Origin: Anaerolineae bacterium
Lineage (GTDB): Bacteria; Chloroflexota; Anaerolineae; UBA1429
Assembly (NCBI GenBank): GCA_963675785.1
Contig: OY776562.1
Span: 32,001-96,000 of the forward strand
Direction of reading: 5' to 3'
Length of the DNA: 64,000 nucleotides
Shown: positions 37,762 through 41,876 of the stretch, in pieces
Position numbering within the stretch: position 1 is the stretch's first letter
Layout of the letters: every line of letters starts with the position of its first letter
The notes under the pieces: model-generated
Told to the model about the DNA's origin: nothing
Databases searched by the model: none
What the model saw: only the letters and a program-made list of their open reading frames with translations
Position numbers and translations under genes: made by a program

Positions 37762-38991
37762 ATGGTGCAGATTAGATTAGATGCTCTGGCCCACGGCGGT
37801 GATGCGATTGGCCGTCTAGATGGCAAAGCTGTTTTTGTACCCGGCGGCCTTCCGGGAGAGTTGGTCGAGGTCGAGATTATCGAGGAGCATAAGCGATTCT
37901 CCTCCGCGCATCTGCTCAATGTGTTGGAGGCCTCGACCGATCGAGTCGAGCCGCCTTGTCCTTATTACGGCGTCTGTGGTGGTTGCCAACTTCAGCATCT
38001 GAGCTACCCCGCACAGCTTGCGGCTAAGCACAAGTTGGTGGTTGAGCAATTTACGCGCATTGGCAAGATTGACGATGCTCTGGTGCATCCGGTGTTGGGG
38101 ATGGAGAATCCCTGGGCGTATCGCAATCATGTGCAGCTTTCTGTGACCGCTGAGGGTGCGCTGGGCTACCAAAAACGCCAGAGCAACGAGGTGGTTGCCG
38201 TGGAAGCTTGCCCACTGCTCCATCCTTTGCTGGCCGAACTGTGGGATGAGTTGGAAATTGACCCCACGGCTGTGGCGCGGGTGATTTTTCGCGCTGGCGT
38301 GAACACGGGTGAACAGATGCTGGTGTTTGAGGGGGTGGATGAAGATCTGCCCGAGTTCGAGATGGATGTGCCCCTTTCTGTGGTGTGGGTGGCGGCAAAT
38401 GGCGCAGAGCAGGTTCTGGCCGGTGAGAACTATTTCTGCGAAGAGATCGCTGGCTATCGCTTTCAGGTGTCGGCGCAGTCCTTCTTTCAGGTGAACACGG
38501 CTCAGGCCGAGGTATTGGTGGATGTGGTGCGGCGCTATGCCGCTCTTCAGCCGGGTGATGCGCTGCTGGATGCTTATTGTGGCGTGGGTTTGTTTAGCGT
38601 GTGTCTCAATGAAGCTTTGGGGGCGATTAGCGCCATCGAGATAGATGATTCCTCTTTTAACGACGCCCTGGTAAACCTGGGGCAGCTGCCAGAAGAGCTC
38701 GATATTGCTTTGATTCAGGGGGCGGTTGAGGATGTTGTGATTGAAGGAGAGGCACACTGCGATGTGGCCATCGTCGATCCGCCTCGGGCGGGTTGTGAGC
38801 TATCTGTACTGCAGGCACTGGCAATCTCTGGTGCTCGTCGTATTGTTATGGTTTCTTGCGATCCGGCGACGCTGGCCCGTGATGTGGCCCGCTTGGAGGA
38901 ATTGGGCTATCAGTTTATCGAAGCCCAGCCAATAGACATGTTTCCGCAGACGGCGCATGTGGAGACTGTGGCCTTGATGCTGATGAAATAG
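37762..38991 (+). CDS. rlmD: 23S rRNA m5U1939 methyltransferase
   Basis: TRAM domain, CPYYGVCGGCQLQH, SFFQVN, DAYCGVG, DPPRAG, SCDPATLARD, DMFPQTAHVE. Confidence 0.95.
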   Translation: MVQIRLDALAHGGDAIGRLDGKAVFVPGGLPGELVEVEIIEEHKRFSSAHLLNVLEASTDRVEPPCPYYGVCGGCQLQHLSYPAQLAAKHKLVVEQFTRIGKIDDALVHPVLGMENPWAYRNHVQLSVTAEGALGYQKRQSNEVVAVEACPLLHPLLAELWDELEIDPTAVARVIFRAGVNTGEQMLVFEGVDEDLPEFEMDVPLSVVWVAANGAEQVLAGENYFCEEIAGYRFQVSAQSFFQVNTAQAEVLVDVVRRYAALQPGDALLDAYCGVGLFSVCLNEALGAISAIEIDDSSFNDALVNLGQLPEELDIALIQGAVEDVVIEGEAHCDVAIVDPPRAGCELSVLQALAISGARRIVMVSCDPATLARDVARLEELGYQFIEAQPIDMFPQTAHVETVALMLMK

Positions 38992-39114
38992 AGAATCTCT
39001 TAATATTCCGTCTATAAATGGGATATATGATACTAGACTAGGTTGCAGAATAATTTCTGAACCTAGTCCGACAGGTGAGTTGCGTTAGGTGCTATGCAGA
39101 TAAGGGATGGGAGT

Positions 39115-40191
39115 ATGTCGCAGAGTGAGATAGATCTGCTAAGGAACAAGCACACAGAGCTGATTGATATTGTCACAAAGAGAGTTCAGACTGATTTCCC
39201 AGAAGATATCGATCTGATTGGTATTTGCGGTTCTTTTCTTACAGACGATTTCTACGAAAAGTCAGATCTAGACTTGCTGGTGGTGCCGAACAATGAGCGG
39301 GGTTGGGGATTTACCTCTTGTTTTGTTCTGGATGGTATTGGTTATGATCTTTATGGCACATCTTGGAAAAAACTTGAAAAGATGGCCTGCTATGACGACA
39401 TGTTCGTATCACATGTTATTGATGTGGATATCGTTTACTGCAGAGATTCTGAATGTATGGAACGTTTTCAACAGTTACGGAGCCAAGCACTCGGCATCAT
39501 CAACGGTCCGATGACGCCTCAAATTCTGCAAAAAGCCAAGACGCATCTGGAGAGTGCCATATCAGCCTATGGCCGCTTGATGTTGGAGGATAAACTTGGC
39601 GCCGTTCGCCAGTATTCTGGTGATGCCCTTTATCATTTGACTAACGCAGTGTGTTGTATGAACCACAGTTACTTTAGAAGGGGAGTCAAACGTCAGCTGG
39701 AAGAAATGTTGGCGATGGAACAGGTTCCTGACCATTTCAAAGAATACTTTGATGGTGTTATGCATGCCAGAACTGTGGCAGAGATCAAGGAAGCAACAAA
39801 GAGATTGCTTCAAAGCGTCAACTCACTGTACGACACGATTTCTAGTGAGTTGCTCGATATAGCGGTCCCCGCAAAAGATGATTTGCGTGGGACATATGAA
39901 GAGATCTGGTCGAATTGGAAGAACAAGATTCATTACGCGGCAAAGCATGGTGACGTACTGCTCGCTTTTGCGACAGGGGTCAGCTGCCAGGATTTCTATA
40001 ACGAGATGCAAAAGGAGCACGGAACTGCATTCATCGATCTAATGGAGCATTTTCAAGCGGATGCACTCGATACTTTTGCCAATGCTTTTGAAGAGGCGAT
40101 GGAACTCTACCGACAGGAGTATGAAAAGTTGGGGATGAGGGTGCTAGAGTATAGATCCGTCGATGCGTTTCGGAAGGATTATCTTGGCTGA
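39115..40191 (+). CDS. Pol-beta superfamily nucleotidyltransferase (KNTase-like)
   Basis: GSFLTDDFYEKSDLD plus helical C-terminal region; alternative start at 39094. Confidence 0.75.
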   Translation: MSQSEIDLLRNKHTELIDIVTKRVQTDFPEDIDLIGICGSFLTDDFYEKSDLDLLVVPNNERGWGFTSCFVLDGIGYDLYGTSWKKLEKMACYDDMFVSHVIDVDIVYCRDSECMERFQQLRSQALGIINGPMTPQILQKAKTHLESAISAYGRLMLEDKLGAVRQYSGDALYHLTNAVCCMNHSYFRRGVKRQLEEMLAMEQVPDHFKEYFDGVMHARTVAEIKEATKRLLQSVNSLYDTISSELLDIAVPAKDDLRGTYEEIWSNWKNKIHYAAKHGDVLLAFATGVSCQDFYNEMQKEHGTAFIDLMEHFQADALDTFANAFEEAMELYRQEYEKLGMRVLEYRSVDAFRKDYLG

Positions 40192-40260
40192 GGAACACAT
40201 GTGCAGGGCTGGGATAGGTTGACGCAATACTTTTCTACTAGCCACATCAATCAGGGTTTT

Positions 40261-40425
40261 GGTGCCGAAGTATTGCTAGGGTCTTTTGCGATGTTGACGC
40301 TTGTTCGTAGGGTGGCGCGTTTAGGCATGGGCCATCGTTTTATCGAGATTCAGTCAATAGACATGGTCCCGCAAACGGCGCACGTAGAGAAAGCAGTATT
40401 GATGTCACGGAACCTGTCTTCTTGA
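40261..40425 (+). repeat. Degenerate copy of the rlmD 3' end
   Basis: TLVRRVARLGMGHRFIEIQSIDMVPQTAHVEKAVLM vs RlmD TLARDVARLEELGYQFIEAQPIDMFPQTAHVETVALM. Confidence 0.9.
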
Positions 40426-40525
40426 CACTCGAAATACAAGTTCTCCGACTTTTGGATAAGAAGCAGTAGTTTTCCTGATATATCAATAATTAAGTAAACA
40501 TATATGACGGCAACAGGATAATAAA

Positions 40526-40912
40526 GTGAAAAACTATACACAGGTCTATGTTATGAACAGCTTCGAAGCTGCTGACACATATTGCAGAGCTTTCGGAGGA
40601 GAGGTAACATTTGAGATAAAAAACGAGGCCGGGGACGCATTTGCGCATTGCGAGTTGTCTGTGAGCGGCGAACCTTTTCTTGCTTTGGCCGAAGCGGCAG
40701 AACCATATGACGTAAGTCTGATTCATAGAGAAAGATGGCAGACAATGACTTTCAATGCTTTTGAATTGGGGAGTGAAGCGGCTGTCAGGAACGCATTAAG
40801 CGTTTTGAGCGAAGGCGGTGTTGTTATTGAGCCAATCCATGAATTACCCTGGAGCAAATGCTGCGCGACGGTTATAGATAAATATGGGGTATGCTGGTGG
40901 ATAGCAATATAA
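40526..40912 (+). CDS. VOC/PhnB-family protein
   Basis: EA-x-x-x-YC-x-AFG, LSEGG-x-V...PWS...DKYGV-x-W. Confidence 0.85.
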   Translation: MKNYTQVYVMNSFEAADTYCRAFGGEVTFEIKNEAGDAFAHCELSVSGEPFLALAEAAEPYDVSLIHRERWQTMTFNAFELGSEAAVRNALSVLSEGGVVIEPIHELPWSKCCATVIDKYGVCWWIAI

Positions 40913-41000
40913 CGACAGAAACGGTTTCGGCTTGAATAAGTCGGTTAGACAAATAACAGTTTTTCGGGGACATTAGCTTATTTTTCAGGAGTATAGGATT

Positions 41001-41417
41001 GTGGTTGAAATAAGGTATGTTAAGAAACGGATAAGGATTTCTGGTTCAGTCTCGATAAGCATCTGGATGAAAAAGAATATGAGAACAAGGTGAATACAAA
41101 AAGGGGTATGACTGTCGGAGGATAATCAGCCGATAGGATTACTTCGGTATAATCTTTTCTGGGATAACACTCCGTTCTGTACTTTGTTATATATAGACGG
41201 GAATTACCGGAGAAAAGGCTATGGTCGAATGCTTATGGGATTCTGGGGAAAAGATATGAGATTGCGGGGGTATGGAATGATATTGGCTTCTACACAGGTC
41301 GATGAAGGGGCGCAGCATTTCTACAGAAAACTGGGTTATAAAGATTGCGGCGGAGTCATAGTGGATATTCCCGGCTATGAACAACCTATGGAATTATTCT
41401 TGAGCAAGGCGTTGTGA
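41001..41417 (+). pseudogene. GNAT acetyltransferase, two frameshifts
   Basis: VVEIRYV / DKDFWFSLDKHL / LLRYNLFWDNTPFCTLLYID...RRKGYG...AQHFYRKLGY lie in different frames. Confidence 0.75.
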
Positions 41418-41444
41418 CTGGTTTGAAATTGCAGAGTTGTTTGA

Positions 41445-41668
41445 ATAACAGTAAAAAAGGCAAGAAAACTTAGAAACGGGCTTTTAATTGCAGGCTTTGT
41501 AATTATGTTATTGGCTTATGTTTATGAACCCCTGATAATTGTTGGTGCCTTGGTGACATTCTCCTGTCTTATTCCTCATTTTCTGTATAACAAATGCCCT
41601 CATTGCGGAAAGCAGCTTGGCAGGACGAAGGAGATTTCTGTCAGCATTGCGGTGGACGCATCAACTAA
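41445..41668 (+). pseudogene. Small membrane protein with a zinc ribbon, frameshifted
   Basis: TM segments, CPHCGKQLGR, then in another frame EGDFCQHCGGRIN*; start appears to be ATA. Confidence 0.6.
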
Positions 41669-41686
41669 AAGTTCCAGTTTGCCGGC

Positions 41687-41876
41687 GTGGATATGTTTTC
41701 TTATACCTGTTTTTCCGTTTACATATTATCTTATACGAGTAGTTTCGGTGAATATGTTAGCGTATACGTGTGATATTTCTGATATGTTAGGATATACCTA
41801 TGACATCCGACCTGTGGTTTCAAGCCATGTGGAGATAGTAGTTCTGATGACGAGAAGGGGCTCTGAGAGCCAATAG
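41687..41876 (+). repeat. Split rlmD-end copy containing four ~30-bp repeats
   Basis: GTGGATATGTTTTCTTATACC (VDMFSYT) ... CATGTGGAGATAGTAGTTCTGATG (HVEIVVLM); units start at 41691, 41721, 41752 and 41782. Confidence 0.75.

Follow-up and report, generated by a model that had tools for sequence, protein, structure and literature searches.

The end of the rumA/rlmD gene is a known entry site in the Bacillota for resistance-bearing phages and ICEs. Integrons collect small accessory genes in a row downstream of one entry site, next to IntI and with attI/attC sites. Several groups of elements come close to the locus considered here. The streptococcal rum phages (phi-m46.1, phi-SsuFJNP3_rum and the SMphage-ICE tandems; PMC4288039, PMC13651849) use the same target codons with an 8-bp core, and the published rlmD att core, CATGTGGA, is identical to the first 8 core bases at our locus (PMC13651849 data S2). 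In phi-m46.1 a recombinase pair is followed by a few kb of variable cargo and then by attR, an order that recurs in the arm loci discussed below, and section 7 of PMC13651849 describes phage integrases at rum that bind and act on the att sites of their neighbours. The ICEs and IMEs at rumA (vanG elements, ICE-r and IME_rumA; PMC4120198, PMC4701971, PMC5704250) insert about 11 codons from the rumA end by means of a single serine integrase, likewise supply an in-frame replacement tail, and stack; in these elements the integrase gene itself contains attR, and GA is stated as the repeat. CIMEs, associated with site-specific accretion, have lost the integrase and transfer genes, keep attL/attR and stack in tandem (PMC5704250). 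Finally, the SCC composite and ccr-less islands at rlmH (PMC13739063, PMC6222049) resemble the present locus in that serine-recombinase cassettes pile up where an rRNA methyltransferase gene ends, with three similar half-sites and a further one that overlaps the coding frame.

The present locus lies within 64,000 nucleotides of an Anaerolineae bacterium genome (the window), and its features are as follows.

37762..38991, plus strand: rlmD, 23S rRNA m5U1939 methyltransferase (TIGR00479, 310 bits, above the cut-off)
38932..38981, plus strand: site 1, attL-like (host B arm 38932-38955, CA centre 38956-38957, element-type tail)
39115..40191, plus strand: block 1, Pol-beta/KNTase-like nucleotidyltransferase (NTase), 358 aa (weak PF18765/PF01909)
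40217..40380, plus strand: decayed duplicate of the 3' segment of the host rlmD, the left part of copy 2 (by alignment)
40357..40406, plus strand: site 2 (duplicate B arm, CA centre 40381-40382, element-type tail)
40526..40912, plus strand: block 2, VOC/PhnB-like gene, intact (weak PF00903)
41001..41417, plus strand: block 2, GNAT acetyltransferase (two frameshifts near the 5' end, read from three frames)
41445..41669, plus strand: block 2, small membrane/zinc-ribbon-like gene (two CxxC motifs in different frames, by eye)
41687..41768, plus strand: spare B-type half-sites (41687-41707 and 41748-41768, with a weak one at 41717-41737)
41802..41851, plus strand: site 3, attR-like (foreign P arm 41802-41825, CA centre 41826-41827, host tail)
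41826..41876, plus strand: displaced original rlmD 3' end (contiguous with rlmD from 41837 onward in the X11 contig)

This is the known rumA/rlmD hotspot, in the form of recombinase-less (CIME-like) remnants, and not an integron; small accessory genes lined up after a set point of entry are common to both, but no IntI is adjacent and the sites resemble serine att sites rather than attI/attC. Unlike the streptococcal phages, the locus consists of ends and cargo only, without phage or recombinase genes, its host belongs to the Anaerolineae, and its site 3 arm does not resemble that of phi-m46.1. By comparison with the cited descriptions of rumA ICEs and IMEs, attR here follows a non-integrase arm and the symmetry is centred on CA, and no large serine recombinase is encoded in the element itself, in contrast to rumA/rlmD-targeted serine-recombinase elements generally. 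Block 2 fits the description of a CIME; no active partner element is present and the right end of block 1 is a host duplicate rather than an element arm; against the SCC islands, the target is rlmD and not rlmH, the core is another, and ccr genes are absent. What is apparently new is the phylum, the empty-site evidence and the helically phased spare half-sites. No description of the arm, the phasing or an Anaerolineae rlmD case was found in the literature covered, which includes few subscription papers, and the words 'Chloroflex' and 'Anaerolin' do not occur in two supplement files of PMC13651849.

Is the DNA behind rlmD an insertion? Positions 38967..41836, 2870 bp in all, are absent from a ~94% identical relative (run X11 record 3), in which 38966 is fused to 41837 with 412 + 334 letters aligned at 94-95% identity. 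The empty-site evidence is this single contig at a depth of 3.4, from another strain or species, and it is compatible alike with a site that was never filled and with one from which the element was excised. The gap skipped by the joint is exactly the 2870-bp spacing between the cores. It follows from the joint that the 2870 bp were inserted and that copy 3 is the displaced original rlmD end; the present-day end is likely element-supplied, and the X11 junction indicates that the last ~9 rlmD codons likely come from inserted DNA. In run X6, a contig with the joint 40407->41825 at 38.4x occurs alongside a block-bearing contig at 106.5x (144.9x in total), and skips block 2 (the VOC/GNAT/zinc-ribbon block) only. 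As this joint is marked 'between: not known', we infer rather than observe that copy 2 is fused there to copy 3. On the basis of X6, the two blocks appear to vary independently within one population. Runs X12-X14 yielded short unlinked pieces only, and no circular form was seen among the contigs, the only material available. An initial annotation of this DNA had proposed insertion of separate blocks at the rlmD 3' end, and the X11 and X6 alleles bear this out. The comparison of gene content across strains that it called for thus turned up empty and partly empty alleles, so relatives do not share one invariant content. Its 'native' rlmD end, on the other hand, is probably the incoming one, copy 3 being the original (X11 junction).

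The three att-like copies share a His-Val-Glu core (at 38956, 40381 and 41826), and the crossover falls inside these codons near the rlmD 3' end, with the core CAYGTNGA. rlmD retains an in-frame replacement tail, and the original tail is displaced to attR. Geometrically, the sites are ~50-bp imperfect inverted repeats with the CA of the His codon at their centre. Such a repeat with a 2-bp centre is that of the published large serine recombinase att model (PMC3783163); in the model the distal motif lies 5 bp further inward in attB than in attP, whereas the shift here is 3 bp (-21 in B arms, -24 in P arms). Site 1 scores 25.4 bits for its B arm, 24.0 bits for its tail and -23 bits as a P arm, and holds the left junction of the empty-site contig, at 38966. 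Site 2 (B arm 18.7 bits, tail 21.4 bits), whose tail terminates in the distal inverted-repeat motif, is the left side of the X6 joint, and site 3 is the right junction of both the X6 and X11 joints. The site 3 P arm reaches 15.0 bits, a score attained at 19 of 6,435,468 genome positions, and is the sole genome site that high with the core next to it (one other site has 12.4 bits); it matches the reverse-complemented site-2 tail at 13 of 24 positions, with the terminal 6 identical.

The 10-bp core is not significant alone: the window has 3 matches where 2.0 would be expected, and 3 are also reached in 36 of 100 shuffles. Copy 3, with a VDMFSYT-coding stretch at 41687 and an HVEIVVLM-coding stretch at 41826, was missed by BLAST; it is supported by the empty-site junction and by the arm family. 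Both stretches of the 'split' copy initially annotated are therefore present, but the split itself is an element end with spare half-sites. These half-sites (41687-41707, 41748-41768 and 41717-41737) lie 112, 51 and 82 bp before the P arm, a spacing near the arm family's 10.3-bp phase, and score 19.8, 12.3 and 4.3 bits, respectively, against a genome background of 2e-5 above 10 bits. The reading of the left side of copy 3 as a decayed rlmD coding copy was rejected: its DNA similarity does not exceed that of shuffles (18.5 vs a mean of 18.8), and as protein it ranks 7 among 501 sequences. Tandem half-sites explain it instead. The frame across site 3 (41505-41876) has no Pfam match, and the arm is of a class whose upstream frames are short.

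Copy 2 is a duplicate of the host's own rlmD end. The native end matches 40271-40390 at 73.6% (blastn, E 1.5e-12), and tblastn gives 65% over 37 aa, the sole such match in the 3.2-Mb genome. Local alignment carries the copy ~165 bp back from the His codon, with identity in 135 of 196 columns, in agreement with the ~160-bp decayed copy noticed earlier. It scores 108 against its own rlmD end, as compared with 54 for the next best of 55 ends and a shuffle maximum of 29. Differences lean towards the third codon position (10/26, against 5/26 at the second and 4/25 at the first), which makes copy 2 more like a once-coding allele than a product of pure decay. Since copy 2 is ~30% diverged and X11 only ~6%, either an older insertion or a duplicate from another lineage is required.

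Where, then, did the foreign arm come from? The 24-bp arm left of copy 3 belongs to a common Bacillota family. Its motif stands exactly 24 bp before the His codon in 35 of 104 non-rlmD HVETVVLMS-type sites, with at most 1 at any other offset, in an arm class defined post hoc, once the site 3 arm was known. In phage contigs, a serine recombinase, mostly as a tandem pair, lies upstream of the arm in 23 of 42 loci and downstream in 1 of 21; from these positions, the site 3 arm is explained as the right end of a prophage. This supports the serine-recombinase origin suggested at the outset and modifies the ICE/IME link made with it, since the associated recombinases sit in phage contigs and are not of the ICE type with a gene fused to the rumA tail. 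The query recombinase is homologous to those of the streptococcal phages, with 54% identity to that of phi-SsuFJNP3_rum and 46% to ORF57 of phi-m46.1. The attR arm of phi-m46.1 is outside the arm family (-15.7 bits), however, and among 55 recombinases closely related to the query only 1 has the arm within 600 bp downstream, so that the cognate enzyme is known by association only. No exact donor of the arm was found in phages, plasmids, IMG/VR or 251 genomes of G425's class, and a class-wide arm scan gave 0 of 291 with a search pattern that also missed site 3 itself by its last letter.

The host genome, a single contig of 94.8% completeness, has no match to PF07508, PF00239, PF13408 or the arm-associated recombinase, which extends to the whole genome the earlier observation that the window holds no recombinase. 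No integrase adjoins the locus (at 0.07 Mb); PF00589 is represented by only two genes, at 1.19 and 3.05 Mb, both Xer-like by eye. There are no conjugation genes inside the insert. The cargo is modest: one NTase, one VOC gene and two broken genes. All genes initially placed in the intervals are present, with the correction that the GNAT and zinc-ribbon genes are frameshifted; indels are listed there in none of four runs, so the frameshifts are not long-read errors. The NTase (PF07827 on record) has homologs of up to 66% identity, the named ones from Clostridium at 59-61%, and no PDB sequence match. The best 119 homologs of the VOC gene are 70-81% identical, those with names being Clostridiales/Oscillospiraceae; the GNAT gene has a 67% DNA match to Enterococcus GNAT genes, and the zinc-ribbon-like gene has no family match. 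GC content is 45% for the NTase, 46% for VOC, 42% for GNAT and 40% for the zinc-ribbon-like gene, vs 56% for rlmD. In other genomes the NTase is beside an rlmD end at none of 11 loci and the VOC gene at none of 7 (in one of these the flank was just 2 kb long), and the idea of cassettes dedicated to rlmD was therefore rejected. Block-2 DNA is in none of 5 NTase-bearing genomes, block DNA is absent from the 41 family genomes searched, and a single-protein NTase scan of genome contigs found nothing. Promoters and terminators were predicted no more often than by chance (6 vs 6.1; 2 vs 1.9).

Similar one-gene inserts are found in 4 of 16 family relatives. G133 and G297 form a filled/empty pair with a ~59-bp duplication, the end in G019 matches that of a Clostridia element at 83% across 107 bp, and G015 has a 198-bp duplicate at 93%, whose identity stops at CA. 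The 10 serine-recombinase loci inspected, which come from 6 of 41 family genomes, are all without an rlmD tail. The locus and four relatives indicate that the rlmD site accepts Bacillota DNA in another phylum, and hence that a portable attB can consist of a conserved protein motif.

How did the locus arise? Probably, the 2870 bp are a two-block insertion in the His-Val-Glu codons of rlmD, brought about by a visiting large serine recombinase of the Bacillota phage type and now recombinase-less. The recombinase would recombine the element's attP with the conserved motif in the host rlmD, so that rlmD gained a new in-frame tail and its old one was moved downstream; the element would later lose its core, or a mini-element would arrive while the enzyme was only briefly present. 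Block 2, from site 2 to site 3, would be a complete attL-attR unit, excisable in trans by a related recombinase, and block 1 would have come by a second route, in which 40-200 bp at the end of the host's own rlmD were duplicated; most likely this was a single RecA-type crossover with a circle that carried attL and derived from a related strain. If true, a recombinase origin would extend the known Firmicutes rlmD hotspot to another phylum. Alternatively, no serine recombinase was ever active in the lineage: a competent host would have taken up Bacillota or sister-strain DNA, anchored by homology at the rlmD end and joined illegitimately at the other, with the att arms as passengers from a donor hotspot. 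ComEC is encoded in the genome, in which no serine recombinase was found, and rlmD-end duplicates vary in length (42, 48, 165 and 198 bp); a homologous-recombination route at rum is documented in PMC13651849, and homology-facilitated illegitimate recombination is proposed for displacement arrays in PMC5361080. Such capture likely explains block 1. At site 3, however, the junction of foreign P arm and host tail falls precisely on the core, where no more than ~10 bp are identical, as expected of a site-specific crossover, and G019 does likewise at another arm type; for the insertion as a whole, recombinase-free capture is unlikely.

A true integron-like platform, on which a population-borne recombinase moves standardized circles of 1-3 genes with the newest nearest to rlmD, is more improbable still. 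The blocks do appear independently variable in one population, the arm with its phased half-sites is standardized in 66 of 75 arms, and the one-gene inserts of the family relatives would fit. However, the genome is without a recombinase, the right ends of the blocks differ (P arm at 41802 vs the duplicate at 40217-40380), two of the four genes are broken, neither the cargo at rlmD ends (0/11, 0/7) nor the block DNA in family genomes (0/41) recurs, and the arm is accounted for as a prophage right end. An integron-like system, as envisaged in the initial annotation, is thus not upheld. The alternative that it set against itself, one tandem duplication of the rlmD end whose remnants were later filled by unrelated genes, holds for copy 2 in so far as this is a local duplicate closest to the host's own rlmD. 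Yet the left side of copy 3 is a foreign arm and not host rlmD, the empty allele is precise, and the third-position lean of copy 2 suggests a once-coding allele; tandem duplication is largely refuted for site 3 and, as an account of the whole locus, the least credible of these. Returning to the recombinase reading, a bolder version can be offered tentatively, as a possibility open to considerable doubt: the rlmD tail in this Anaerolineae family might be a cross-phylum, enzyme-less landing pad, where Bacillota-phage recombinases drop and remove 1-3-gene cassettes, insertions renew the target through an rlmD-end duplicate or spare half-sites, and the 10.3-bp-phased half-sites act as an accessory binding array for direction or stacking. 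With its short natural attL/attR pair, for which an empty allele has been observed and an associated recombinase family is known, the locus makes cross-phylum target recognition and the role of the phased half-sites directly testable.

A metagenome scan with RlmD found distant relatives only (31-72%). In a class-wide motif scan, at least 2 matches occurred in 16 of 401 genomes, a tally that took in the unpublished G354. Apart from G286, whose copies are on opposite strands, a full rlmD followed on the same contig by co-oriented copies was confirmed in G000, G015 and G133 and in no other; the remaining matches are on separate contigs or are orphan fragments.

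The repeated rlmD end is a real feature. The gene at 37762-38991 is rlmD (TIGR00479, 310 bits), and its 3' end recurs downstream with gene blocks between the copies, as the initial annotation had proposed. Copy 2 (40271-40390) matches the rlmD 3' end at 73.6% (E 1.5e-12), the sole such match in the genome, and in alignment its likeness reaches about 165 bp 5' of the His codon (135/196 columns identical). Copy 3 (41826), 2870 bp from copy 1, is the 10-bp core only, the frequency of which is by itself no better than chance. The "split copy" formerly read at 41687/41826 does contain a DMF-coding stretch and the core, but the former, at 41687, is a spare half-site of host type and not part of an rlmD copy. 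The arms (24 bp left of the CA of the His codon) and tails (right side) are arranged as follows:

Site 1 (His-Val-Glu core at 38956): host arm, then tail
Site 2 (core at 40381): duplicated host arm, then tail
Site 3 (core at 41826): foreign arm (41802-41825), then host tail

Between the copies lie a nucleotidyltransferase gene (block 1, sites 1 to 2) and a VOC gene, a frameshifted GNAT gene and a frameshifted zinc-ribbon-like gene (block 2, sites 2 to 3), with 40-46% GC versus 56% for rlmD. Named homologs of the nucleotidyltransferase and the VOC protein are from Bacillota (Clostridium at 59-61% identity; Clostridiales/Oscillospiraceae at 73-77%). The host, by contrast, is likely a member of the Anaerolineae judging by sequence, since the named RlmD homologs are from Anaerolineae/Chloroflexota (44-54% identity).

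The 2870-bp block is an insertion. Run X11 includes a 746-letter contig, with 94-95% identity to the window, in which 38555-38966 is followed by 41837-42169, omitting exactly the 2870 bp that separate cores 1 and 3; this is a single contig at depth 3.4 from another strain or species, and it fits either a never-inserted or an excised site. Therefore, 41826-41876 is the original rlmD end of the host, and the present tail of rlmD likely arrived as part of the insert. Run X6 has a 38.4x contig that links 40407 to 41825, the sequence between being marked "not known"; together with the block-2-bearing contig (106.5x) this sums to 144.9x, against 142-150x in the flanks. The left part of the joint contig is 72 letters and hence starts at 40336, a 30-letter overlap with the nucleotidyltransferase-bearing contig, which ends at 40365. 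X6 thus appears to hold an allele with block 1 and without block 2. With the nucleotidyltransferase contig at just 108.6x, roughly a quarter of the X6 population would lack block 1 as well; no joint for such an allele was among those listed. In X6 the block-2 contig (record 23) has 27 foreign letters ahead of 40491, which may come from an IS present in this population; in the genome their best match is 21/23 letters (E 0.036). In run X13, nucleotidyltransferase pieces (39178-40044) are 94-96% and rlmD pieces 91-93% identical, though unlinked. Block 1 may predate the split from X11.

As judged from sequence, sites 1-3 are serine-recombinase-type att sites. HVETVVLMS-type sites (148) were gathered from IMG/VR contigs and from genomes belonging to the same class as G425, a class that we take to be Clostridia from the name of contig L063. 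Among the 104 sites without a preceding rlmD, 35 carry one motif at an offset of exactly 24 bp upstream of the His codon, and no other offset occurs more than once; the arm class, defined after that count, comprises 45. By a matrix built from 42 of these arms, the window arm left out, 41802-41825 scores 15.0 bits, a value reached at 19 of 6.4 million genome positions, among which only this one is followed by the core. The arm mirrors the tail in a 50-bp imperfect inverted repeat around the CA of the His codon; attP is expected at about that size (PMC3783163), and the model there has a host-arm motif shift of 5 bp, versus 3 bp here. The core overlaps the 18-bp attB of phi-m46.1, and its first 8 bases are identical to the published rlmD att core (PMC13651849). 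A weak tail-like match at 55747 (11.7 bits), with neither arm, is probably due to chance.

Which recombinase may have acted here? At one arm locus, a serine recombinase gene stops 149 bp short of the arm on its upstream side, and its protein served as query. In 23/42 arm loci having at least 9 kb upstream, a co-oriented homolog, in most cases as a tandem pair, ends 2.5-9 kb short of the arm, and a homolog lies downstream in 1/21, counts that are not independent, the contigs being kin. The query has 54% identity to the phi-SsuFJNP3_rum recombinase and 46% to ORF57 of phi-m46.1, a phage that shares the layout of the arm loci (recombinase pair, cargo, attR). Its own arm is unlike the window P arm, so that the putative recombinase is assigned to a family and not to one enzyme. 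In the phi-m46.1 record, a second His-Val-Glu scar, whose host-type arm is degenerate, lies 116 bp past the phage right junction (L481:2004-2120). The recombinase already reported missing from the window is missing more widely: PF07508, PF00239, PF13408 and the query have no match in the 94.8%-complete, one-contig genome, which encodes two tyrosine recombinases, both distant from the locus. Serine recombinases occur in 6/41 family genomes, with an rlmD tail at 0/10 of their loci. Such phage integrases at rum bind and act on att sites of neighbours, according to PMC13651849.

Copy 2 is of another kind than copy 3. Its score is 108 with the rlmD end of the host itself and 54 with the next best of 55 ends, so it comes from the host lineage or a near one; its differences are biased to third codon positions. 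The layout of rlmD, one gene and a host duplicate recurs in the family genomes G015 (198 bp, 93%), G133 (42 bp) and G012 (48 bp), and G297, of the same genus as G133, has an empty site. A fourth, G019, has a one-gene insert (TIGR04076) that ends in an arm matching the end of a Clostridia element at 83% identity over 107 bp. Clear inserts were thus found in 4/16 family genomes read downstream, G008 being an additional weak case, and a class scan of 401 genomes confirmed tandem copies in this family only. The variable duplicate lengths suggest that block 1 came in, leaving copy 2, either on an attL-bearing circle by a homologous single crossover or by homology-facilitated capture following transformation (PMC13651849, PMC5361080). 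The genome encodes ComEC. In G015 (L064:2785-5928), the second rlmD copy is followed by a long tail, two TcmP genes and, by eye, a radical-SAM-like ORF; the tail is presumably ICE-type. Orphan rlmD 3'-end fragments occur in G353 (L109:3933-4761, two fragments about 770 bp apart) and G170 (L117-L119), where their contigs show no full rlmD match.

Upstream of the P arm are three spare half-sites:

41687: DMF-coding stretch, host type, 19.8 bits
41717: weak
41748: 12.3 bits

Such rlmD-type half-sites precede 66/75 family arms (loci L142-L426; window 41687-41825), and their distances to the arm tend to follow a period of about 10.3 bp (R 0.78, or 0.60 when computed on 28 distinct distances). Those in the window, 112, 82 and 51 bp from the arm, are in phase with this period, suggesting extra recombinase binding sites on one helix face, a candidate accessory array.

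The locus is neither an autonomous element nor an integron; the integron-like nature first suggested was not borne out, the cargo genes not being seen beside rlmD ends in other genomes at the nucleotidyltransferase and VOC gene loci examined. In its workings it resembles the rumA/rlmD hotspot used by Bacillota phages and ICEs (PMC4120198, PMC4701971, PMC4288039) as well as the SCC arrays at rlmH (PMC13739063), and block 2 fits the sequence definition of a CIME (PMC5704250). Neither a Chloroflexota case nor phased half-sites were described in the literature searched, which had most subscription papers outside its scope.

The DNA 3' of site 3 (41980-44120), with two DUF1801 genes, a C-terminal phosphorylase fragment and a B3/4 gene, scored no additional att site and is possibly older accessory DNA. 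A second X6 allele there has 76 other letters for the 208 bp between the DUF1801 genes (42368-42577) and a diverged second DUF1801 gene. On the other side, a stretch of lower GC (39-51%) at 35020-37191, with flavin reductase, MarR and FMN reductase genes, lies past the 3' end of a tRNA (37105-37191, Ser by eye) and may be a second entry site.
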